From NCBI GenBank assembly GCA_964016885.1, contig OZ024745.1:96782001-96846000 (forward strand): 64,000 nucleotides of DNA, in the 5' to 3' direction. Within the stretch, counting starts at the first letter, position 1. Every line of letters begins with the position of its first letter. The position numbers and the translations under genes are program-made. Shown here one piece after another: positions 613 through 63,238 of this stretch. The notes under the pieces are model-generated. The model saw nothing but the letters and a program-made list of their open reading frames with translations, was not told the origin of the DNA and did not search any database. The DNA comes from Eledone cirrhosa (Eukaryota).

Positions 613-689
<77 letters not shown>

Positions 690-729
690 CAATAACAAAG
701 AACGCCTATAGCATATGCATATCTTTACT

Positions 730-775
730 TGCTAACATTGTTTCATCCGCACTATAAGTGGGACTCATCAGAGCA
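730..775 (-). ncRNA. Type I hammerhead ribozyme at PLE 3' end
   Basis: Reverse complement of 7771-7816. Confidence 0.8.
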
Positions 776-2846
776 TAAAGGTTAATTACATACCACACAA
801 GCAATAACAAATCCAAGACATTGAAGAAATAAAGAATGAAAAATAATAAAAGATAAAAGATATTGAGGAAGTAAAAATAAAAATAAAGATAAAAATAAAA
901 ATAAAAATAAAAATAAAAATAAAAATAAAAATAAAAATAAACATTGAAAAATAAACAATGGAAAATAATTGAAAAATAATTGAAAAATAAGGGGTGCTAT
1001 CAGTCACAGTTGGGCGGGGTGCTATCAACATATAGTTACATACAAGCATACACATGGATAAGAGAACAGACAAGAATAGATAAGATAGATAGGATTAGGT
1101 AAGAGTAGATAAAAAATAGGTGAAAAATAGGTAAAAAATAGACTTATAATATATATAAGAAAATATTTAAAAAAAACATACATATAGAATATAAAATATA
1201 CAGATAATAGTGATACAGGGTAAGGAATGAAATAAAATAGAATAAAATAATATAAAATTAAAATTAAAATTATATAAAATAGAATATAATATAATATAAT
1301 AATAAAATAAGATAAAATAAAATAAAATAAAATAAACTAAAATAAAATAAAATAAACTAAAATAAAATAATATAATATAAGATATAATTAAATAAATAAA
1401 ATTAAATAAATAAAATTAAATAAAATGAAATGAAATGAAATCAAATAAAATAAAATAAAGTAAATTGAGATAAGATATATATTTTTTTAGAATATATTTC
1501 TTGAATATATCAGGGGCCCACGAAGGCACTAAGTGTCACAGTTATCAGTATCACTTGACCATTGCAATGCAATGGAGACGTCCCAGGTTGGGCAGTCTCA
1601 AAAGTTCACTCGAAAGTCACGGGTGTGCATTCACACAGTTGAGCGGTGGGGTAATCACAAACCGGTTCACACCCGGGCAGGAGTCCAATGGTCAACAGAG
1701 GTACATCGAAGGAAGGTAGGAGAATTCACGTGCAGCAGCAAGAGGCAGACAGGTGGGCCGAAAGCAAGCAGGTGCAGGCGGGCTAGCCGAAAGCAAGCAG
1801 ACACAGTTGGGTCAGGCGGGTTAATATGCATACTCAACAGCGCATACAAAAGATATATAAAAAATAGCTTCAAGAGCCAATATCATGAAGTCCCCGCATT
1901 GGGACATCTCAAGATTATACACACCACTATGTTCAGCACGTATATGCACATATACACACCACATGCATATGCAGAGACGGTATACATATATATATATTTT
2001 TATATACAGACATATACAACCACCTACACCCATACACATATAAATGTATACACAGACACACACGCACACACACACAGCGTAGGACACCCGGGTCAAAGCT
2101 GATATTAAACACAGAAATACCACATTAGGCAAGACCCACCACCACGGATAATACATTCAAAATAAATACATACGATGAGATGCAGTAAAATAAATCAAAT
2201 TGAAATCCTACGGAGATAATCATGTCCGCACGTGCCATTGCCCGATTCAAGTGTACACAGACCGTTAGTAACTACGGAGGGCTATCGGGGCCAAAACGTT
2301 ACTTTCGGGATAATAACAACGACCGTCAATATATGGAAGGCCAATCGTGCTAGAAAGACTACAACCCCGGGCAAGAGCTCCCAGAAGTCGGCCTGTAGAT
2401 CTTAAACCACAGAATAGGAGGGCAACACGTACATGTGCCACGTATCTACTGCTTACGGCGAGATGGCACAGGTCCGCCCACAGTTACAGGCTAAATTTCT
2501 ATTTGTGCAGCCTATATCACAGTACACGCTCTACATAGATACATTACATCATAACTCATGCGCACACAGAGGTACAGATCCGCAAGATACACGTCGGGAT
2601 AGACCCACCAATGCACCAATGGTGGGTAGGCGAACGTGGATGGGCTACATCCGCTGTGCCAAACAGGGGTGCTTATTAACATACACACCCACTCACCTGT
2701 ACACCGCAATATCCAGATCAATATTCTCCCGCAGGCATACGTATACACTCACTGACTCATATACATAGAAGACAAACAATAGGAGACAGTTACACACAAT
2801 AAGAGACAGTTACACAAGATAGCCCAACTGGAGAATTAAGGAAGTG

Positions 2847-4919
2847 CTAGCTAATAGGTTTAAAGTAGAAGAAAGAGCTTAATATTCGGTGGGGGCAAGA
2901 GGAAAATATTTCTGACTTTCTGTTTAGTAGAGGGCATTTAGCAAATATAATAGAGTGGGATTCGGCAAGGCATAGGTTACATACTCTATTATGAGGAGTA
3001 TATGGATGGGATTTAGCAACCTGCCGCCAAGTAAGTGTGTAATGTGTTCGTGCATTTTTTAAATTGTGGACGTACGCTGCCAAGGAGGTGGAGTTCCTCA
3101 GTTTATTGTGTCTAAAAGTGCACTGGTGAGAGTTAAACCTGGTCTTAAAGGGGGTGGAGGTTGATCCTATATAGGTTTTAGTGGACGCCGTAGTTACCAC
3201 ATCACACGCGTAAACTATGTTTCTAATAAGGCAGAAACCATTCAGGGGGCAGCCTGAAGCCCTTCTACAGTTACAATTTCTGGTGATGCTATTCTCAGAA
3301 TGATCACCACTTGTGTTCCGGCCCCCTCTGTCCACTACCGTGTTTTCCCCTAGGCTTAGGTTGTCCAGGCCTTCCTTTATTTTCCTATTATTAGTAATGG
3401 CCAGATGAGAGGCCAGATTTTGGGTTGTAGAATACGAAAGTTTAACAACATTCTTATTGAGGATAGAGTGGTACCTATTACCAGGAGGGAAGTTCCTTTC
3501 TAACACAGAGAAGAAGGCCCTAGGAATATTTATAGCCACTTCAGAGTTAAAAGGGGGGTTGAAGTATGTATTCAATCTTCTTCTATTCTTTTTATTCTTT
3601 TTATTTCCATCACTATTATTAGCATTATTATTTCTACGGTTACTATGCTCACCTAGTTTATGCGGGGAGCTGCGAGGCCTACCATTGCTATTACTTAGAC
3701 TAATGGTGCCCTGCTGGTTCATTCCACCGGCATTTAGAACCCTCCCATTCGCGACACCTCTATTACCAATGGACATATTATGTGTTATAACAACACTGGT
3801 AGAGCTACTATTAGGACTATTATTTCCCTGGGTATAATACAATTTGTCCCTAAAGCCGGATCTACCTAAGGCATCATTATAGTAATCAGCCTGCGAGTCA
3901 AACGCCGCTTCACTATGTGAGAGTGAACTTATTCTGTTAGATACGCCCTTCAGTATGCCGCTGATGACCGACCTAGTGTGGTTAGAGTTGGTATTCACGT
4001 AAGTCAGCAATTCATTAGGCTTATGGTACGGTGTGTACGTATGGTTATCCAAGTCCAATGTAACATCCAGGAAGTTCACAGTTCTATCATTTATATCCAT
4101 AGTAATGGATAGGTTAAAGGTTTTAAAAAAGCTATGCAGCTTTTTCCTAATGCGCACTATATTATACTTACTAGTATCTATGGAGAGTAGGGCGTCATCC
4201 CGGTACAACCCGCCCCTAAGGAATGGGAAGTTACTATGCAGTTCATTGAGGAGGTATAGCCCAACTAAGTCGGTGACCTGAGCAGAATCACTCGACCCCA
4301 TAGTAATGTCAAAATTATCAGGTGTGTTTTTTCTCGTCCATAGATTATCCTCAAACATGATAATGGTTTTACGTGCAGCGAGAACAATATCTATCTGTGG
4401 CCTTGTAATTGCCCCCCTCTGCATGGCTAGGATAAGGGCCTTATTGAGGATAATAGGAGATATAGATGTATAATAAGCATCAATATCAAATTGGATGAAT
4501 CTGAGTGAGTCACGACCACAATACGTAGAGAACCACCTAATGACTTCACTAGTGTTACCCCAAAGCTCAAGGAAAGTTTTTTCTCTAACCAGGGGAATAA
4601 CGCTATCCAAGATTCCCTTACTAATAATCCCCAGGTCAGACCTGGAGGGGCAGATAAGCCTAACTGAGGGTCTGCTAATAAAATTTTCCTTGTGGTCCTT
4701 GAGGGTGAATCTAGGCTGCTTGGGGTAATAAGGCTGAGTGTGTTTATCCAGACCTAATTTTACCACTATGTTATACCCCTCCAGATTAATATGGTACGGT
4801 GTGTACGTATGGTTATCCAAGTCCAATGTAACATCCAGGAAGTTCACAGTTCTATCATTTATATCCATAGTAATGGATAGGTTAAAGGTTTTAAAAAAGC
4901 TATGCAGCTTTAACCGCAT
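2847..4919 (-). CDS. 5'-truncated Penelope-like element (Naiad-like) RT + GIY-YIG ORF
   Basis: 690-aa open frame with LKDHK, FIQFDIDAYYTSI, MGSSDSAQVTDLVG, GLYRDDAL, CNCR..CPLNGFC linker, IVY..YIGST, CNLCLAE and LNRKSEIFSSCPH. The first ~43 aa are a duplicated internal piece, so the true N-terminus is missing. Confidence 0.92.
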   Translation of the reverse strand: MRLKLHSFFKTFNLSITMDINDRTVNFLDVTLDLDNHTYTPYHINLEGYNIVVKLGLDKHTQPYYPKQPRFTLKDHKENFISRPSVRLICPSRSDLGIISKGILDSVIPLVREKTFLELWGNTSEVIRWFSTYCGRDSLRFIQFDIDAYYTSISPIILNKALILAMQRGAITRPQIDIVLAARKTIIMFEDNLWTRKNTPDNFDITMGSSDSAQVTDLVGLYLLNELHSNFPFLRGGLYRDDALLSIDTSKYNIVRIRKKLHSFFKTFNLSITMDINDRTVNFLDVTLDLDNHTYTPYHKPNELLTYVNTNSNHTRSVISGILKGVSNRISSLSHSEAAFDSQADYYNDALGRSGFRDKLYYTQGNNSPNSSSTSVVITHNMSIGNRGVANGRVLNAGGMNQQGTISLSNSNGRPRSSPHKLGEHSNRRNNNANNSDGNKKNKKNRRRLNTYFNPPFNSEVAINIPRAFFSVLERNFPPGNRYHSILNKNVVKLSYSTTQNLASHLAITNNRKIKEGLDNLSLGENTVVDRGGRNTSGDHSENSITRNCNCRRASGCPLNGFCLIRNIVYACDVVTTASTKTYIGSTSTPFKTRFNSHQCTFRHNKLRNSTSLAAYVHNLKNARTHYTLTWRQVAKSHPYTPHNRVCNLCLAESHSIIFAKCPLLNRKSEIFSSCPHRILSSFFYFKPIS

Positions 4920-5717
4920 AGTAACCGTAGAAATAATAATGCTAATAATAGTGATGGAAATAAAAAGAATAAAAAGAATAGAAGAAGATTGAATACATAC
5001 TTCAACCCCCCTTTTAACTCTGAAGTGGCTATAAATATTCCTAGGGCCTTCTTCTCTGTGTTAGAAAGGAACTTCCCTCCTGGTAATAGGTACCACTCTA
5101 TCCTCAATAAGAATGTTGTTAAACTTTCGTATTCTACAACCCAAAATCTGGCCTCTCATCTGGCCATTACTAATAATAGGAAAATAAAGGAAGGCCTGGA
5201 CAACCTAAGCCTAGGGGAAAACACGGTAGTGGACAGAGGGGGCCGGAACACAAGTGGTGATCATTCTGAGAATAGCATCACCAGAAATTGTAACTGTAGA
5301 AGGGCTTCAGGCTGCCCCCTGAATGGTTTCTGCCTTATTAGAAACATAGTTTACGCGTGTGATGTGGTAACTACGGCGTCCACTAAAACCTATATAGGAT
5401 CAACCTCCACCCCCTTTAAGACCAGGTTTAACTCTCACCAGTGCACTTTTAGACACAATAAACTGAGGAACTCCACCTCCTTGGCAGCGTACGTCCACAA
5501 TTTAAAAAATGCACGAACACATTACACACTTACTTGGCGGCAGGTTGCTAAATCCCATCCATATACTCCTCATAATAGAGTATGTAACCTATGCCTTGCC
5601 GAATCCCACTCTATTATATTTGCTAAATGCCCTCTACTAAACAGAAAGTCAGAAATATTTTCCTCTTGCCCCCACCGAATATTAAGCTCTTTCTTCTACT
5701 TTAAACCTATTAGCTAG
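4916..5717 (+). pseudogene. Inverted duplicate of the PLE linker + GIY-YIG region
   Basis: Translation identical to the C-terminal part of the 2847-4919 ORF. Confidence 0.9.
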
Positions 5718-7770
5718 CACTTCCTTAATTCTCCAGTTGGGCTATCTTGTGTAACTGTCTCTTATTGTGTGTAACTGTCTCCTATTGTTTGTCTTCTATG
5801 TATATGAGTCAGTGAGTGTATACGTATGCCTGCGGGAGAATATTGATCTGGATATTGCGGTGTACAGGTGAGTGGGTGTGTATGTTAATAAGCACCCCTG
5901 TTTGGCACAGCGGATGTAGCCCATCCACGTTCGCCTACCCACCATTGGTGCATTGGTGGGTCTATCCCGACGTGTATCTTGCGGATCTGTACCTCTGTGT
6001 GCGCATGAGTTATGATGTAATGTATCTATGTAGAGCGTGTACTGTGATATAGGCTGCACAAATAGAAATTTAGCCTGTAACTGTGGGCGGACCTGTGCCA
6101 TCTCGCCGTAAGCAGTAGATACGTGGCACATGTACGTGTTGCCCTCCTATTCTGTGGTTTAAGATCTACAGGCCGACTTCTGGGAGCTCTTGCCCGGGGT
6201 TGTAGTCTTTCTAGCACGATTGGCCTTCCATATATTGACGGTCGTTGTTATTATCCCGAAAGTAACGTTTTGGCCCCGATAGCCCTCCGTAGTTACTAAC
6301 GGTCTGTGTACACTTGAATCGGGCAATGGCACGTGCGGACATGATTATCTCCGTAGGATTTCAATTTGATTTATTTTACTGCATCTCATCGTATGTATTT
6401 ATTTTGAATGTATTATCCGTGGTGGTGGGTCTTGCCTAATGTGGTATTTCTGTGTTTAATATCAGCTTTGACCCGGGTGTCCTACGCTGTGTGTGTGTGC
6501 GTGTGTGTCTGTGTATACATTTATATGTGTATGGGTGTAGGTGGTTGTATATGTCTGTATATAAAAATATATATATATGTATACCGTCTCTGCATATGCA
6601 TGTGGTGTGTATATGTGCATATACGTGCTGAACATAGTGGTGTGTATAATCTTGAGATGTCCCAATGCGGGGACTTCATGATATTGGCTCTTGAAGCTAT
6701 TTTTTATATATCTTTTGTATGCGCTGTTGAGTATGCATATTAACCCGCCTGACCCAACTGTGTCTGCTTGCTTTCGGCTAGCCCGCCTGCACCTGCTTGC
6801 TTTCGGCCCACCTGTCTGCCTCTTGCTGCTGCACGTGAATTCTCCAACCTTCCTTCGATGTACCTCTGTTGACCATTGGACTCCTGCCCGGGTGTGAACC
6901 GGTTTGTGATTACCCCACCGCTCAACTGTGTGAATGCACACCCGTGACTTTCGAGTGAACTTTTGAGACTGCCCAACCTGGGACGTCTCCATTGCATTGC
7001 AATGGTCAAGTGATACTGATAACTGTGACACTTAGTGCCTTCGTGGGCCCCTGATATATTCAAGAAATATATTCTAAAAAAATATATATCTTATCTCAAT
7101 TTACTTTATTTTATTTTATTTGATTTCATTTCATTTCATTTTATTTAATTTTATTTATTTAATTTTATTTATTTAATTATATCTTATATTATATTATTTT
7201 ATTTTAGTTTATTTTATTTTATTTTAGTTTATTTTATTTTATTTTATTTTATCTTATTTTATTATTATATTATATTATATTCTATTTTATATAATTTTAA
7301 TTTTAATTTTATATTATTTTATTCTATTTTATTTCATTCCTTACCCTGTATCACTATTATCTGTATATTTTATATTCTATATGTATGTTTTTTTTAAATA
7401 TTTTCTTATATATATTATAAGTCTATTTTTTACCTATTTTTCACCTATTTTTTATCTACTCTTACCTAATCCTATCTATCTTATCTATTCTTGTCTGTTC
7501 TCTTATCCATGTGTATGCTTGTATGTAACTATATGTTGATAGCACCCCGCCCAACTGTGACTGATAGCACCCCTTATTTTTCAATTATTTTTCAATTATT
7601 TTCCATTGTTTATTTTTCAATGTTTATTTTTATTTTTATTTTTATTTTTATTTTTATTTTTATTTTTATTTTTACTTCCTCAATATCTTTTATCTTTTAT
7701 TATTTTTCATTCTTTATTTCTTCAATGTCTTGGATTTGTTATTGCTTGTGTGGTATGTAATTAACCTTTA

Positions 7771-7816
7771 TGCTCTGATGAGTCCCACTTATAGTGCGGA
7801 TGAAACAATGTTAGCA
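7771..7816 (+). ncRNA. Type I hammerhead ribozyme at PLE 3' end
   Basis: tgct-CTGATGA-gtcccac ttata gtgcggat-GAAA-c aat g-TT-agca. Confidence 0.8.
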
Positions 7817-7948
7817 AGTAAAGATATGCATATGCTATAGGCGTTCTTTGTTATTGATTATATCACGGCTCTGTCCTCAGACATCGAGCTAACCTTATAC
7901 TGCCTGTTGGATAAGTGGAGTATTATACACCCCTGATCCTCTCCCTAG

Positions 7949-16240: not shown

Positions 16241-16769
16241 TCACACATTATAACATGCAGACCCCCACTATATTTACCTCTATTATAATATATACCTCTG
16301 TTAAGATACGGGTCCTTTAGAATAAATTATTTTCGCGCCACTCCTGGCCTGACTAGCTTGACATCAATACGGACTTTTCTTCCTCTTTCTTTCTGTCTTT
16401 CTTCTTGTAGCTCGACAGTAACGCTGACTTTTCTTCTTCTTCCTTTTCTTCCCCCTTCTTTCTTTCATTTTTTTTGAAGCATGATATTAACGCTGACATA
16501 TCTTCCTCTCCCTTTCTATTTTTCTTCTATTTGACCGGGAGGGTAGTAGCACACTATAGGCTTTACCCCCCTCACCAAATAGCCTCAAGTAGACCGAATA
16601 GCCAGCACTTGAGGGCGACCGGCTAAAGTGGAAGATGCTAGATGGTCGGTCGTCCTCCGGTCTTTGATTTTCAGCCCCATGGATTTTGTCTATTACATTC
16701 ATTTATTATATTTCGAATACCTGATGATATCACCGGATTCATACGGAACCCGGTCAAGCTGAAAGGTTA

Positions 16770-19700
16770 TTGAAAGACACTGTTTTCTGTTATATAAAAA
16801 CTACAATAACACCAGAACAAATCCGCTTCTTAAAACACTGTGTTTCCTCCAAAACATACACAACAAACATATCAAAACAAGTAAATAATTTATTATTGAA
16901 CAAAACACAAGCCGAACGACTAAAACACACAATAACAGTTAATATGAAAAGAACAACATGCACAAAAGTCAACGCACTCTACAGACAGAAACGCATTAAC
17001 GGTAAGGAAATCCGAAATCTCATCACAGCAAACGAGAGAGATAACTTCGTGAGCGCCATCCGGCGTGAAACGAAATACGCTCGAAACGAATGCAATAGGC
17101 ATTTCAAGAAGAAATTAGAATGGATGAATAAGAAAAAACTACAAGAAAGGAAAATCGAATATTCTCAAAAATACCCAGATAACATCGACAATATCCGTAT
17201 GACTGATGTAAAACTACCGGAAGAATTTACCAATGACCACACAGTAAATATCTATGGGAACACTTTAATCAGTGAACAAGAACAACAAATCCTGCGGTTA
17301 CCACCAAAATTTGCCATCTACAAAAAGATTAACCCTATGGAGTGCAAAACGGAGATGGAAAAGTGTTTCACAAAAATACGTTGGAATGCAAAGGTAAACA
17401 ACAACAACAATAATAACGGTAGTAGTAATATAAACAATAACTCTGAGTACAGAAATAACAGCCATAACCATAACAATAGCAGGAAAGTGAGAAATAGTGA
17501 TAATGGTATAATACTAGCGATAGACAGAACAACAACAACCAAAATAATAATAATAATAGAAACATTAACCACAGACACAGCGACCACAGTAGTAATAACG
17601 GTAACAATACGAACAACAACAACAATAACCACAGTGGTAATAATGGAAATAGTACATGTAGCAACATCAGTGATAGACACAACAAAAACAAGAAACATAA
17701 TAAAAGTAACAACCACAATGGTAGAAATAACAGTAACAACAATAACAATAACGGTGAAGTAAACAACAATACATCTAGCAATCATAACAATAATAATAAT
17801 GCTAATGATAGAAACAACAACAACCACCCTGATAACAACAATAGCAACACACACAACTATGACGATAGATATAATGACAACCCCTTAGAGAAACTATTTT
17901 TCAACCCAGCTGACAAAACATATAAGATGGGTAATATCTATCCTACGAGGTTACCCTTTAATAAAAGAGTTTGCATACCACAACAAATAGATGAAGAGAC
18001 AGAGGCACAGTTCACCATAGCTAGAAATAAGATTAGACAAATAGTAGACAGGTATACTAAGAGACAGAGCAGACCAGAGGCCCAACAACTTGGGAGGAAA
18101 CATGTAGAAGGCTTGGTTAGCCTCAAGCAGCGCACAAGGGATGGTGAGGTAGTGTCTCTACCCACAGATAAGTCTGGTAGGATGTCAATAGATAGCATGC
18201 CGAACTACATCGAGCCTATGCAACCCCACATCACCAACACGAGCGAAGTTGCACAACAAACACACGATGGAGAGAAAAAATCCTCAACGCTCACATGATG
18301 ATGTGGACTGACATCCTAAAGCCAAGCAGACGCACTGCCAACAACTTCCAGGCGTCTAACAATGGCATACCACCCTTGTATGGGCTCCGCAAAGACCACA
18401 AGACAGTCGACGACCCGACAACAGGACCACCAACAAGACCCGTATGCGGAGCTAATATAGCTAGCAACTACAGGATCTCTTACTTCCTCTCAGTGGTTAT
18501 ACGCCCCATAATCAAGATGTCCCCAGATGTATGTGACAGTACAGAGGACCTCCTCAGCAGAATCAGTGAGTGCAACAAAAACAGAAGCCTATCCAACTGC
18601 ATAATAGGCAGCATGGATGTGGTGTCACTGTACCCATCCATTAACATTGATTTTGCTGTGAAAAGATGTGTGGAGATGATCATTGAGAGTGAGGTGGAGT
18701 TCTGCGACGTCGACACAGACGAACTGGGCCTCCTACTTAGACTTACCTACGACACTGACTACCTAGACAGCCATGACCTTAGATGTTTCTGCCCTAGTAG
18801 ACCTATAAGAGGTAAACCCCCCACCATAACCTCAATGGCAAAAAAGACTCCCATGGGAAGGTGGATTGGGTGGACCAAAGCTATACGGACCCCCAAAACA
18901 ACGATCAGGTAAGAAAAATGGTCGCACATGCAATAGGGGCTAGTATCAAAACTACCCTAAAGGGCCACATATTTAAGTTCAATGAGAAAATCTACACCCA
19001 AAATGAGGGAGCAGCCATCGGCGTCAGCATAGCTGGTGATGTTACCAACCTTTTCATGGTATGGTGGGAAAGGAGACTTAAAGATCTCCTTAATGAAAGC
19101 TCCATAGACCTCATCATGTACTCTCGTTATGGAGACGATATCAATATAGTTATAAGAACACCCCCACTAGAGAGCACTAACAAGTTTGATTTAGAACGTA
19201 GCACGATGGAAAGCATCCAGCAGATAGCTAATTCCATACACCAGAGTATAACTGTAACTATCGACTTCCCTTCCAAACACCCTAACAATAGACTACCTGT
19301 ATTAGACACATAACTCTGGATTAACACTATAGACGAGAGAGCCCAAATTCTCCACTCACACTATGCTAAACCCATGGCCTCCAAATACCTGATACTCAAA
19401 AACTCAGCAATGTCCAGTAGTGCTAAGTTTAATATTCTGATCGCAGATTTGGTACGAGTGATGAAGAATGTGTCCCGCATGTGCGACCCAACAGAAATGG
19501 AAAGACACATCCAACACTTCATCAACCGCATGCAGTTCTCTGGCTACAACCAAAGAGACAGAGTCAGAGTATACGAAGGAGCCATGGAAAAGTATAAGAC
19601 CCTCATAGAACTGGACATGAAAGGAATTTGCCCATTATACAGGAGCAAATCATGGAATAGCTTAGATAGGGCTAGACATAAGATAGGGAAAGCCACATCA

Positions 19701-20285
19701 TGGTACGACAACCAGAGATACCAGAGTGTCATGTTTGTGGACGCCACCCCTGGAGGGAAATTAGCTAACCAGTGTAGAAAGGCCCTGAGAAAGACCCACT
19801 TAAAAATAAAGGTGGTAGAAAAGCCAGGAACCACCATAAAATCCCTGATCAGCAAAACCTACCCTTTTAAGAAAACCCACTGTACCAATAGGAAATGTAT
19901 CATATGTAAGGTGAACCCCCGGATAAACTGTAAAACTAGAAACGTAGTCTATAGCATAAGATGTACAGAGGGTACTTGCAGAAACATGACAACAACATAC
20001 ATAGGTGAGACAGCTCGTAGCATAGGTGAAAGGATAGACCAACACTGGGGGGAACTAAAAGGACGAAAAAACGGTTCAGTACTATACGAACATGCTAGAC
20101 AACAATATGACGGTAACATAGACAACATAGAAATTAGAATAATATCTAAACATAGAAATGACCCAGCAGATAGGCAAATCAGAGAGGCCAGTGAAATAGA
20201 AATTAGAAGACCAAAGCTAAACAGAAAGAATGAATGGAATAACAACAACACCCAAACAAACAACACTGACCTAAGAGAAGTATAA
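16770..20285 (+). pseudogene. Near full-length decayed PLE of a non-Naiad clade (Neptune/Nematis-like, tentative)
   Basis: Frameshifted ORFs with LPPKFAI, PTDKSG, LYGLRKDHK, RPVCGA, SMDVVSLYPSI, GAAIG, YSRYGDD, RMQFSGY, C-x4-C-x2-C, VVYSIRC and YIGETARS; stop codon at 19311. Confidence 0.88.
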
Positions 20286-20515
20286 ATAAGTAAATAAAAT
20301 AAGATAAATAAATACATACACAAGCACAATAACAACAAGCACATAAACACACACTAGTCACCCATCACACAGCAAACATAACACTAATCACACACGCAAA
20401 CGCATGCGCAAAGAAGACAAAATAAAATAAACAAACAAGCAAATAAATAAATAAATATATAGACAGACTGAATAAAAAATGGCGTAGACATACAACACAA
20501 CAGGAGGAAAATATA

Positions 20516-20560
20516 ACACCACTGACGATGTTGCAGATGTGCAACGAAAGATTTATGATA
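20516..20560 (+). ncRNA. Hammerhead-like motif downstream of PLE ORF (stem I decayed)
   Basis: ca-CTGACGA-t gttgca gatg tgcaac-GAAA-gatt-TA-tg. Confidence 0.65.
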
Positions 20561-20832
20561 AACTATATATATGTGTTTGTGTCTATATTGTATCTGTATT
20601 ATTTTTGACCGTCGGTCAGTCAATGGCAACATTGAGGACCGAGTAAGTTAGATTACCGATATAAAAGACACAGAAGCGAGAAGCGAAAACCAACCAAACA
20701 GTGAGTGTGTTCTGTTATTAATTCTGGCAATATTACACAAATATGACCCTCCCCAAGTATAACTATATATATATATATATATATGTATACATATATATAT
20801 ATATATGTATACATATATATATATATGTATAC

Positions 20833-21584
20833 ATGAAATGCCTGGGACGGTTGGAGGGTCACTGATGAAGGACTTACTTTTTCATATGCACCACCATTTG
20901 CAACGCGCAGCCATCATTATTATCATATTTACACATAATTTTTCTTCTGCTGCTACCCGTCTGTTCGTTCTTTGTACCTTTACCCTTTCTCGTTCTTTGT
21001 ACCTTTTACCCTTTCTAGCAGTCTCTCTCTCTGTTAGCCTCCTCCTCAACTTTCACTCACTCATTCTCTGTCACTACCTCTCCTCCTCCTCTTTCCTCCT
21101 CCTCCTTCAAGTTTGACCTGTGTGTAATTCTTTTCTCGCGCGTTCCTGGTCAAGCTGGTATGGATTATTTTTCTCTCTCTCTTTCGTCTGCGACTTCACA
21201 AAACTTATGTTTACCGAATTCGTAGACCAGACCCCTTCCTTTTCTTCCCCCCGTCAGACCTGTGCGAAATTCCTTCCTTGCTCACATTTCAACCAGGTTT
21301 GATGGTCTTTTGTCTCTTGTTCACGATTTCACCGAGTTTATATTCATAGAGATCTGGGACTTGTCTATTTCTTCTCACTATCCGTTGCTTAAACCATTTT
21401 GTTTGTTACCCTAACGTCCACTTTATTTACGTGTCCCAACGACTTTTTTTAGCCGTTGTTCGCACCAACCTGAGGCATATGGCCCTTAAAGCGATGAAAT
21501 GCCTGGGACGGTTGGAGGGTCACTGATGAAGGACTTACTTTTTCATATGCACCACCATTTGCAACGCGCAGCCATCATTATTAT
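20833..21584. mobile_element. Non-coding tandem element, ~1.14 units of 661 bp
   Basis: ~90-bp direct terminal redundancy (starts at 20833 and 21494). Homologous to the reverse complement of 44552-46192. (TA)n flanks. Confidence 0.85.
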
Positions 21585-21670
<86 letters not shown>

Positions 21671-21672
21671 TA

Positions 21673-21977
21673 TAAAATAAAGTTAAATAAAAGTCAAATG
21701 ATTAAAATTTAGCTTCGTTTATTACTGCTATATATATTTCAGTGACAGCCATCTTTGGCTGTGACCTCTTCAGGCAGTTTGAAGAGGTCACAGCCAAAGA
21801 TGGCTGTCACTGAAATATATATAGCAGTAATAAACGAAGCTAAATTTTAATCATTTGACTTTTATTTAACTTTATTTTACACTACTCCGGAGTAACCAAA
21901 CCAACCTGCGCACTTCGTCGAGTGCTCCAGCCTGCATACTGAGGTGTTGGTATACAACCAACATAAACTCTAAATCT
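21673..21977. mobile_element. Short fold-back HHR element (arms 21673-21772 / 21780-21879, tail to ~21977)
   Basis: 100-bp perfect inverted arms separated by ~7 nt. Confidence 0.85.
21724..21778 (-). ncRNA. Type I hammerhead ribozyme (truncated mirror copy at 21779-21828 +)
   Basis: actgc-CTGAAGA-ggtcacagcc aaagat ggctgtcact-GAAA-tatata-TA-gcagt. Confidence 0.85.
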
Positions 21978-44220: not shown

Positions 44221-44491
44221 TAAGAGTTAAACAAGATTCAATGAATACATCAAAGAATGAGTTTTACAATAGATTGGAAGAACTCTACAAGAAAATATTT
44301 TCCAGAGTTATTAAAATTAATTCAAAATATTAACAAAATAGATATTCTTGTGATCAATTATATTTTATTATACATATTTCAGAGGTACTGAATTAAGTTC
44401 AACAGTACATCCTCATCAGAGAAAATAAAATATGTATAATAAAATATAATTGATCACAAGAATATCTATTTTGTTAATATTTTGAATTAAT
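44221..44491. mobile_element. Short fold-back HHR element (arms 44316-44379 / 44428-44491, tail 44221-44315)
   Basis: 64-bp inverted arms. Minus strand 44368-44425 reads CTGATGA-gga t gtactg..cagtac c tct-GAAA-tatg-TA. Confidence 0.8.
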
Positions 44492-44498
44492 ATATATA

Positions 44499-44551
<53 letters not shown>

Positions 44552-44557
<6 letters not shown>

Positions 44558-46192
44558 AAGTGAGTCCTTCATCAGTGACCCTCCAACCGTCCTCGGCATT
44601 TCATCGCTTTAAGGGCCATATGCCTCAGGTTGGTGCGAACAACGGCTAAAAAAAGTCGTTGGGACACGTAAATAAAGGGGGACGCTAGAGTAACAACAAA
44701 AAGGGTTTAAGCAACGGAAAGTGAGTAGAAATAGACAAGTCCCAGATCTCTATGAATATAAACTCTGTGAAATCGTGAACAAGAGACGAAAGACCATCGA
44801 ACCTGGTAGAAATGTGAGCAAGGAAAGAATTTCGCCCAAGTTTGACGGGGGGAAAAAAGAGAGAGAGAGAGAAAAAGAGAGAAAGAGAAAGGAGAGAAGA
44901 GGAAGAATAAGAAGAAGAAGAAGAAGAAGAAGATAAGGTGGTCTGGTCTGCGAATTCGGTAAACGCAAGTTTTGTGAAGTCACAGACGAAGGAGAGAGAG
45001 AAAAAAATTCCATACCAGCTCGGTCAAGACTGCGCGAGAAAAGAATTACACACAGGTCAAACTTGAAGGAGGAGGAGGAAAGAGGAGGAGGAGAGGTAGT
45101 GACAGAGAATGAGTGAGTGAAAGTTGAGGAGGAGGCTAACAGAGAGAGAGACTGCTAGAAAGGGTAAAAGGTACAAAGAACGAAACAGACAGGCAGCATG
45201 GAAAAGTAATATGTGTAAATATGATGATAATAATGGAGCTGCGGCGTTGCAAATGGGATACATATGAAAAAGTGAGTCCTTCATCAGTGACCCTCCAACC
45301 GTCCTCGGCATTTCATCGCTTTAAGGGCCATATGCCTCAGGTTGGTGCGAACAACGGCTAAAAAAAGTTGTTGGGACACGTAAATAAAGGGGGACGCTAG
45401 AGTAACAACAAAAAGGGTTTAAGCAACGGAAAGTGAGTAGAAATAGACAAGTCCCAGATCTCTATGAATATAAACTCTGTGAAATCGTGAACAAGAGACG
45501 AAAGACCATCGAACCTGGTAGAAATGTGAGCAAGGAAAGAATTTCGCCCAAGTTTGACGGGGGGAAAAAAGAGAGAGAGAGAGAAAAAGAGAGAAAGAGA
45601 AAGGAGAGAAGAGGAAGAAGAAGAAGAAGAAGAAGAAGAAGAAGAAGAAGAAGAAGAAGAAGAAGAAGAAGAAGAAGATAAGGTGGTCTGGTCTGCGAAT
45701 TCGGTAAACGCAAGTTTTGTGAAGTCACAGACGAAGGAAAGAGAGAAAAAAATTCCATACCAGCTCGGTCAAGACTGCGCGAGAAAAGAATTACACACAG
45801 GTCAAACTTGAAGGAGGAGGAGGAAAGAGGAGGAGGAGAGGTAGTGACAGAGAATGAGTGAGTGAAAGTTGAGGAGGAGGCTAACAGAGAGAGAGACTGC
45901 TTGAAAGGGTAAAAGGTACAAAGAACGAAACAGACAGGCAGCATGGAAAAGTAATATGTGTAAATATGATGATAATAATGGAGCTGCGGCGTTGCAAATG
46001 GGATACATATGAAAAAGTGAGTCCTTCATCAGTGACCCTCCAACCGTCCTCGGCATTTCATCGCTTTAAGGGCCATATGCCTCAGGTTGGTGCGAACAAC
46101 GGCTAAAAAAAGTCGTTGGGACACGTAAATAAAGGGGGACGCTAGAGTAACAACAAAAAGGGTTTAAGCAACGGAAAGTGAGTAGAAATAGA
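44552..46192. mobile_element. Non-coding tandem element, ~2.25 near-identical units (712 and 745 bp)
   Basis: Unit starts at 44552, 45264 and 46009; the length difference is a (GAA)n expansion. Confidence 0.9.
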
Positions 46193-62046: not shown

Positions 62047-63238
62047 TTAGATTGGTCCAAATTTTAGAGCATTGAGTAGTGGTTGAAATTTATTAATGAA
62101 ATGTGTTTCCTTATTGGTACGTTGGATGAAAGTAGCGTTGTCTATGAATTTGTAAATGGGGAAAATTTTATAGTTTGGATGTTGGTTGAGAGCACAATTG
62201 GCGATATGTTCACTAAATGCAATCTTTCTGTATTTCTGTATTTTAATTTGTGATTTATGGACGGTCATACGTTGACGGAGGCTGTTTTTTGTCTGTCCTA
62301 TGTAGTGCTCTTGACAACCTGAGCAGGTCAAAACATAGATAAGGTTTTCAGATGCACATGTAAAGTTGTGTTTAACTGTGAAACGTTGTCCTTGTTTAAA
62401 ATGGAATGTTGAACCTTCTATTAGATTTATGCATATGCCACAGTTGGGCCTTCCGCATTTTGTTACTGTAGGGTTCATTGTGAGGGTTTGTTGGATTTTG
62501 GCTTGTGTGAGGATGTTTTTTATGGATTTGGGTTGTCTTTTGCTCTTTATGATGTTGTGTGTTTGAAGGATATTGTTCATTCTTGGGTCTCTTTTTCGTA
62601 AAGGAATGTTCTGGAGGATGGTGTGGAATGCCTCATTGTTGAGGGTGTTGTGTGTGGAGATGTATGGTAGAGTTTTTTGTTGCGGTTCATTCCTGGGTTT
62701 GGGGTGTCTGAGTTCCTGGATGTCTAGTTTTAGGGCACGTTGGAATCCATTGGTGATTAGGGATGGTGGGTAGTTTCTGCTGATAAGTGTGTTTTTTAAT
62801 TCTTCTAGTCGTGTGTAGCATGTGTATTTATCTGAAACTATTGTGCAGATCCTTCTGGTTAGATTATAAGGAATTGCCATTTTGGTGTGTCTAGGGTGGC
62901 ACGAGTTGAATGGAAGGTATTGTTTGGAGTCTGTGGGTTTGTAGTATATGTCTGTTTCTATTTTGTTGCTTGTTTTCTTGATGAGGATATCGAGGAAAGG
63001 GAGTTGTTCATGGCTGTAATCCATTGTGAATTGTAAGTTAGTGTTGCGTCCATTCAGAAGGGTTTTGAACTCAAACAGTCTATCTATACTTTCATGCCAG
63101 AAGATGAAGCAGTCATCCAGATATCTCTTCCAGTTCGTTTCTATGTGTTGGTAGAAGTGATTGCCGTATTTGTCTAAAACTTTGCGGTAGAGAATGGTTT
63201 ACAAATATCCCATGACAAGGTTGGCGTATGAGGGGTTG
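62047..63238 (-). pseudogene. 5'-truncated PLE of a non-Naiad clade (Neptune/Nematis-like, tentative)
   Basis: PSYANLVMGY, WKRYLDDCF, LPFLDI, YYKPTD..YL..SCHP, CGRPNCGIC, LIYVLTC..C..YIGQT. Confidence 0.88.

Follow-up and report, generated by a model that had tools for sequence, protein, structure and literature searches.

The tandem repeat of Eledone cirrhosa described here probably encodes a ribozyme of unusual build: for the minus strand of its unit, the predicted fold is a hammerhead with multiple pseudoknots in which a four-way junction takes the place of stem II. This RNA likely cleaves itself once per unit, and the repeat is likely a non-autonomous retrozyme derived from Naiad Penelope-like retrotransposons. 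It was analyzed in a stretch of 64,000 nucleotides, referred to below as the window (contig OZ024745.1 of assembly GCA_964016885.1, positions 96,782,001 to 96,846,000). An earlier note on this DNA had proposed a retrozyme-like mobile tandem family with a conserved structured core as a candidate unconventional ribozyme, and this proposal is upheld; the further idea that a new motif replaces the hammerhead is abandoned, since a complete hammerhead core is present on the minus strand in a non-circular order.

The repeat is a non-coding tandem mobile family. The sequence agrees with the earlier description of two insertions of about 2.25 and 1.14 units, placed in opposite orientation and flanked by (TA)n:

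44552..46192, minus strand: tandem array of subfamily A, 2.25 units, with the minus strand as RNA sense
44490..44551, no strand: (TA)n target sequence bordering the fixed 3' end of the subfamily A array
44678..45217, minus strand: non-coding body of the unit, rich in pyrimidines and containing (CUU)n and (CU)n tracts, varying by substitutions and indels
45218..45262, minus strand: tail of about 40 nt between the short and long fixed 3' ends, internal copy
20833..21584, plus strand: second insertion, subfamily B, 1.14 units, with the long 3' end at 21584

The subfamily A array (units of 712 and 745 bp) lies between (TA)n and (TATG)n; its fixed short 3' end at 44552 runs into (TA)n and lacks the tail of about 40 nt, and its 5' end at 46192 is truncated. 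The reverse copy of subfamily B, with a unit of 661 bp, begins at its 5' end 14 nt past a predicted cut. The ends of the two insertions do differ, but what had been read as different start points are really two fixed 3' ends 40 nt apart. The only long frame of the unit (187 aa, 45462-46025) has no Pfam match. In the host genome of 3.0 Gb, a pattern of 34 positions that describes the catalytic half in subfamilies A-E has 5,642 exact matches, and the reversed control has none. Units of 510-850 bp form head-to-tail arrays across the families; nine units of 721-806 bp with near-identical cores are found at locus L264 (G000:C1:43917500-43925500), an array that terminates at the short fixed 3' end.

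The minus strand carries all core nucleotides of the hammerhead, namely CUGAUGA, GAAA, and U16.1-H17, in the order cleavage site, GAAA, CUGAUGA. This is the non-circular block order S-G-C, or type SGC. A clue is provided by subfamily C, in which a double compensatory change falls in the helix whose strand stops directly before CTGATGA on the minus strand. The features of the predicted ribozymes are as follows:

44564..44665, minus strand: permuted hammerhead copy 1, 102 nt, S-G-C, four-way junction replacing stem II
44640..44665, minus strand: helix b 5' strand (44662-44665, pairing with 44564-44567) and hairpin c (44640-44661)
44635..44638, minus strand: helix d 5' strand, the displaced stem II partner, pairing with 44604-44607 directly before GAAA
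44628..44633, minus strand: helix e 5' strand, pairing with 44583-44588 and connecting the stem II arm with the distal end of stem I
44612..44625, minus strand: block S, with stem III 3' strand (44620-44625), H17 = A at 44619 (AUA triplet), and stem I strand (44612-44618)
44594..44607, minus strand: block G, with helix d 3' strand, position 11.1 (44603), GAAA (44599-44602), and stem III 5' strand
44564..44582, minus strand: block C, with stem I strand (44576-44582), CUGAUGA (44569-44575), position 10.1 (44568), and helix b 3' strand
45276..45377, minus strand: permuted hammerhead copy 2, predicted cut 45331/45330
46021..46122, minus strand: permuted hammerhead copy 3, predicted cut 46076/46075
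21433..21534, plus strand: permuted hammerhead of the second insertion, predicted cut 21479/21480

By analogy with known hammerheads, copy 1 would be cut between 44619 and 44618. The first half of the RNA comprises, in this order, the helix b strand, hairpin c, the d strand, the e strand, the stem III strand ending in U16.1, H17, and the stem I strand; in the second half, a 4-nt linker is followed by the d partner, 11.1, GAAA, the stem III partner, a short linker, the e partner, the stem I partner, CUGAUGA, 10.1, and the b partner. Helix b, hairpin c, and helix d are consecutive, with b formed between the 5' end and the strand that follows CUGAUGA. Stem II is split, its partner strand being located some 70 nt upstream, and the core is therefore placed on a four-way junction. 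A single stem II pair precedes this junction in subfamilies A-E (10.1-11.1 is A-U) and in families I and J (U-A); in families F and H these positions cannot pair (A/C and U/C), so that the junction sits directly on the core, and both states are possible in family G.

Several details that had been noted before take on another meaning in this fold. The CTGATGA and GAAA motifs, thought to be orphans, complete the permuted hammerhead of the minus strand. The nested helices ccaacc/ggttgg, ggcat/atgcc, and caacggct/agtcgttg are in the sequence, but the plus-strand fold built on them is not the relevant one: its helices are mirror images of the minus-strand stems and junction helices. TGCGAA is likewise present, not as a linker but as the complement of one split stem II strand, and the downstream AATAAA exists but lies on the antisense strand and is missing from subfamily E.

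A descriptor that asks only for the S-G-C block order and for stems I and III of at least 4 bp recovered the four complete cores in the window and nothing else, and found nothing in 30 first-order Markov controls of 64 kb. The earlier statement that the cores of the two insertions differ at about three positions, and the rest of the unit at many more, is borne out: the 125-nt cores show exactly 3 differences versus 41/511 substitutions and 10 gaps elsewhere. Between subfamilies A-E, the 102-nt core has 3-20 substitutions and no gaps in any of the 10 comparisons, whereas the rest of the unit has 10-29 gaps. Thus, the claim that the core is conserved above its flanks holds for indels, which never occur, and mostly for substitutions, which are usually fewer; it fails for A versus C, where core substitutions (12/102) are as frequent as in the rest of the unit (11.3%).

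Families beyond A-C were obtained with looser patterns (D, E, F, F2, and G) and by descriptor scans (H, I, and J). The F and G patterns demanded GAAA before CTGATGAAG, and the descriptor for H, I, and J demanded stems I and III, with all other helices left free; part of the conservation in F, G, H, I, and J is therefore built in by selection on the motif or the stems. The S-G-C order and the core are invariant in all 11 families of the host genome, and the helices change pair by pair. In every one of the 11 families, CUGANGA directly follows stem I, and GAAA runs into stem III with A15.1-U16.1. The cleavage triplets are AUA, AUC, GUU, GUC, and GUA, with G never found at position 17. With one natural copy taken per family, pairing holds in 64/66 cells of stem I and in 43/44 of stem III; when strands are crossed between families, pairing drops to 458/660 and 329/440, respectively, and among the three deepest families (A, F, and G) to 21/36 and 10/24. 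Most stem I positions show 3-5 pair types across families.

Among 12 copies of subfamilies A-E, the 36-pair model has 94.9% of cells paired versus 27-52% for slid partners, and 19 double changes were observed versus 7.1 in shuffles; further pair types (15 versus 17.1 in shuffles) are not above the shuffled level. Helices b and d are invariant in these copies, one hairpin c pair is A.C on the minus strand in 8 of the 12, and the outer stem III pair fails in 7. Outside this group, helices b, c, d, and e have other sequences in F, G, H, and J and are still paired; helix b, in particular, is changed at one pair in J and is entirely different in F and G. At the level of sequence comparison, the compensatory changes support the six helices. 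Nested-only folding of subfamily A yields an alternative fold at -26.5 kcal/mol versus -20.9 for the nested part of the model, and the z-scores of nested single-strand folding (-0.75 to -1.98) are not significant, a measure that is uninformative for a knotted fold; with a better nested alternative and no significant z-score, misfolding is possible.

We compared the motif with known ribozyme classes. No Rfam model matched the window at its gathering score, and the 13 weak matches up to E=10 included no ribozyme; the repeat core is not matched by the Rfam models of type I-III hammerheads. The earlier note was right that the repeat has no canonical hammerhead: CTGATGA on the minus strand is not trailed by GAAA, so that type I, II, and III parses fail. 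Inspection by eye against consensus structures gave a partial HDV look-alike on the plus strand without the class-specific nucleotides, twister and pistol readings of the minus strand that also miss theirs, and, on either strand, no match to the core nucleotides of HDV-like, twister, pistol, or hatchet ribozymes. The repeat does contain CUGANGA, GAAA, an NUH triplet between stems III and I, and covarying stems I and III; it lacks a continuous stem II between CUGANGA and GAAA, where 1 bp or none is followed by the four-way junction. Judging from these sequence features, the motif likely works like a hammerhead, yet it lies outside types I-III and is not strictly of type SGC.

The type-SGC order was named by Eckert et al. 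(2023; PMC10085705), who demonstrated in vitro cleavage; in the available text of that paper, these ribozymes come from metatranscriptomes only and from no genome of a known organism. The repeat shares with their HRIMA-1 the S-G-C order, the full core, and a short linker of 2-5 nt between stem I and the strand of stem II (typically 3 nt in HRIMA-1, and 2-4 nt ahead of helix d across the families compared here). Helix e connects stems I and II at their distal ends, in the manner of the I-II helix of HRIMA-1, an equivalence suggested by topology. In contrast, HRIMA-1 has a normal continuous stem II, whereas in the repeat the stem II strand lies 5' of block S, block C is interrupted, and the junction is formed by b, c, and d; HRIMA-1 is known from metatranscriptomes, whereas the repeat motif is genome-encoded in thousands of copies. 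If a type-SGC ribozyme were opened at the point where CUGAUGA meets its stem II strand and then held together by helix b and hairpin c, the modeled topology would result. Eckert et al. allowed six permutations on the assumption that block C cannot be interrupted, and the split-stem-II arrangement falls outside these six as they are defined in the available text. Their type CSG comprised only two sequences, both metagenomic. Our literature search found no tested hammerhead with such a four-way junction.

A likely source of the repeat is the Naiad clade. Naiads show 5' truncation, inverted 5' copies, a tail of 30-40 bp at one end, and a (TA)n insertion bias (Craig et al. 2021; PMC8557442); the accessible parts of that study report no canonical hammerheads in them and describe eight "half cores" with the second half 35-50 nt away to either side. 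The repeat displays (TA)n insertion, 5' truncation or inversion, and a 30-40-bp tail, traits that are common to other Penelope clades as well. Having no ORF, and hence neither the N-terminal GIY-YIG domain nor the reverse transcriptase, the unit would be non-autonomous.

The Naiad consensus sequences (File S5 of the PMC8557442 supplement) provided an independent test of the fold; in them, candidate sites were located by CTGANGA alone and folds were parsed by eye; the sites covered in the parts of the file amount to 55/62, 21/23, 23/25, and 39/43, and motifs broken across lines may be missed. Within these passages, 10 of the 54 published Naiads have the S-G-C order and the same six helices near the 3' end, on the sense strand after the ORF. 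They include octopus, coral, and other elements: Naiad_Obim, _Ovul, _Amil, _Aacu, and _Anas, and five further entries (file parts 9, 12 twice, 19, and 25) that by file order belong to a hydrozoan, a cubozoan or acanthocephalan, a crustacean, and a squid, the squid entry being decayed. Position 10.1 varies in them (U, A, or C) together with its partner in b, whereas 11.1 is mostly C, which places the junction directly on the core; in most of these elements as parsed, 10.1 and 11.1 are unable to pair and stem II is absent. Six other entries (Naiad-1, -2, and -3_Nbra, Naiad_Hcon, and one each in parts 13 and 16) have, as judged by eye, type C-S-G with a normal stem II and an I-II helix, so that the nematode Naiads appear to terminate in complete type-CSG hammerheads. 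No clear motif was seen in the examined passages of the remaining 38, including Naiad_Bfor, which fits only in part. Type SGC and type CSG are circular permutations of each other.

The likeness between Naiads and the repeat is one of fold and not of aligned 3' end sequences, and Naiads are ORF-bearing elements, whereas the repeat consists of head-to-tail units of 510-850 bp. A pattern derived from the octopus Naiad ribozyme has no match in the host genome. A motif search for reverse transcriptases revealed five decayed Naiad-type copies there, and a protein search gave 80 decayed Naiad matches with a longest open frame of 223 aa and no intact Naiad among them. The permuted motif occurs in none of 25 stretches (5 + 20) around these decayed genes. 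Loci L213-L217 and L223-L262 are decayed Naiad-type reverse transcriptase remnants, and a first look listed 1107 candidates. As only decayed Naiads were found and the motif is not nearby, the current mobilizer may be an unassembled Naiad or a member of another Penelope clade. On the published consensus sequences and the present families, we consider it probable that Naiads across animal phyla, along with numerous non-autonomous retrozymes derived from them, carry reversed-order self-cleaving hammerheads, of a previously undescribed split-stem-II form with a four-way junction in cephalopods, cnidarians, and an arthropod and of type CSG in nematodes. These hammerheads would supply the ribozyme apparently missing from Naiads, and they would be the first non-circularly permuted ribozymes known to be encoded in animal genomes.

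The ends of the insertions bear on how the repeat may move. Among 179 distinct 3' contexts of subfamilies A-E, 125 reach (TA)n within 120 nt of the core, 36 of them at +10/11 and 51 at +50/51 after it; as the loci were picked by similarity, these counts do not reflect frequencies in the genome. In two-sided inverted insertions, one flank frequently carries the short end and the opposite flank the long end (e.g., L002, L005, L034, L066, L111, and L118). In one (TA)n tract (L263:1200-1740, minus strand), an F-like copy adjoins a J copy that is itself an inverted pair. The 5' ends are variable or inverted and are scattered over the unit with no pile-up at the predicted cut (2/138, in a list that includes some false ends from low-complexity matches). 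Many or most copies run through an intact predicted cut site, as is expected from a circular or uncleaved template.

In the cycle that we propose, read-through transcripts of arrays would be cut after each AUA (GUU, GUC, GUA, or AUC in sister families), and cleavage after H17 would release unit-length monomers of 510-850 nt (712 and 745 nt in the present array). The monomers may then be ligated into circles, as in type I animal retrozymes, for which such ligation has been demonstrated (Cervera and de la Pena 2020; PMC7229834). A Penelope-like reverse transcriptase with a GIY-YIG endonuclease would prime at a (TA)n nick, starting at a fixed position 60 or 100 nt beyond the cut, and would continue around the circle, producing head-to-tail arrays that stop or invert at random. 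With priming 60 or 100 nt past the cut, a full unit crosses the cut site, so that a circle or an uncleaved multimer would be needed. Sequencing runs were assessed by contigs only: X20 behaves as DNA, and X24 covers the repeats while leaving a unique stretch uncovered, a pattern consistent with RNA as well as with shallow DNA. The contigs of run X23 (organism K) contain related unit copies at low depth and none of a unique stretch of the window.

Two described groups of elements resemble the repeat in organization. Animal non-LTR retrozymes, as far as the accessible sources describe them (PMC7229834; bioRxiv 10.64898/2026.07.22.740005), are likewise non-coding tandem units with one hammerhead core each, thousands of copies, and a proposed Penelope origin; they differ in having type I hammerheads and units of 150-450 bp, whereas the motif of the repeat escapes type I descriptors. 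Of the features that define a retrozyme, the repeat has one ribozyme core per non-coding tandem unit and does not have the type I hammerhead. Chlamys elements such as MRC1 (PMC8557442) are also non-autonomous and head-to-tail, and belong to a Penelope clade with an N-terminal endonuclease; MRC1-type elements have a 3' end in common with autonomous families. In contrast to the repeat, Chlamys elements are found in green algae and target (CA)n or (C)n, and such a ribozyme is neither described nor evident in the accessible part of that paper.

Other explanations of the motif were weighed against the self-cleaving permuted hammerhead. It is unlikely, though the least improbable of the alternatives, that the fold is right and barely or no longer catalytic, a hammerhead-derived binding or priming signal for a Penelope-like reverse transcriptase. 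The fixed distance to the 3' end where priming starts, a stem II cut down to 0-1 bp, and the prevalence of copies that run through the cut site all agree with such a signal, as does the slowness of the published SGC ribozymes (PMC10085705); what it does not account for is that exactly the catalytic nucleotides and U16.1-H17 are kept in the 11 families and, in the Naiad entries covered, in several phyla, with all else changing. Minimal Penelope hammerheads are thought to act as dimers, and an ordinary circular-order hammerhead might form by pairing between neighboring units or between two molecules, given that tandem units supply every block order at long range and that stem II is minimal. We regard this as improbable: the local helices b, c, d, and e covary and bind the three blocks of a single unit to one another, and autonomous Naiads, in the parts of the supplement covered, have the same local helix set at their 3' ends.

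Still less credible is a new plus-strand ribozyme of a non-hammerhead kind, the idea put forward in the earlier note, here with an HDV-like double pseudoknot. The mirrored helices pair equally on both strands (34/36), and the hairpin c wobble even favors the plus strand in A-D, but that strand has neither the catalytic motif of a known class nor the J4/2 cytosine, and the pseudoknot pairing proposed for it is absent from subfamily C. Changes bridged by G.U in stems I and III, together with the polarity of the Naiad ORF, indicate the minus strand. The least plausible explanation, which we give almost no weight, is an ordinary satellite or minisatellite with chance helices and a core kept by recent amplification. 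Young subfamilies are indeed near-identical, but the short arrays are dispersed and have fixed ends and inversions, base pairs change in a compensatory manner from family to family, and the descriptor found nothing in any of the 30 controls; these results already contradict a satellite origin.

The permuted hammerhead reading bears on a point left open in the accessible text of Craig et al. (PMC8557442), namely that Naiads have no canonical hammerhead and contain unexplained "half cores". It would take non-circularly permuted hammerheads from unassigned metatranscriptome RNAs to animal genomes in thousands of copies, and by implication type I-III descriptors and Rfam overlook a class of retrozymes and circular RNAs. 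The predicted architecture, with a four-way junction for stem II and an interrupted block C, is barred by current rules and thus bears on how the core folds. In a literature search whose coverage did not extend to subscription journals and preprint supplements, type SGC appeared only in the 2023 paper (PMC10085705), and no permuted hammerhead was reported in Naiads or retrozymes. As far as their available text goes, the 2026 retrozyme preprint (Li et al., bioRxiv 10.64898/2026.07.22.740005) uses type I models only, and PMC13725137 cites hammerhead permutations with no genomic case.

The window also contains several Penelope-like ORFs. One element lies in a 3-kb inverted repeat (683-7863) and has an ORF at 2847-5060 with an internal 122-bp duplication; others are found at 16728-20760 (plus strand, frameshifted) and 62047-63198 (minus strand, with a Pfam GIY-YIG match). 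Penelope ORFs close to copies of the repeat were considered as its autonomous partner, but as far as checked in the window they inserted independently into the (TA)n tracts that the repeat also occupies; the subfamily B copy lies in a (TA)n tract just beyond the element at 16728-20760. CTGANGA..GAAA motifs of ordinary order occur at 771 (-), 7775 (+), 8267 (-), 8363 (+), 8927 (+), 20522 (+), 30065 (-), 34084 (-), 34975 (-), 39235 (+), and 42981 (+); these 11 resemble type I hammerheads of other Penelope-like elements or retrozymes, with none at the Rfam gathering score. Finally, a near-perfect inverted repeat at 21659-21866, centered at about 21763 and carrying CTGAAGAGG on one strand, is located between (TA)n tracts.
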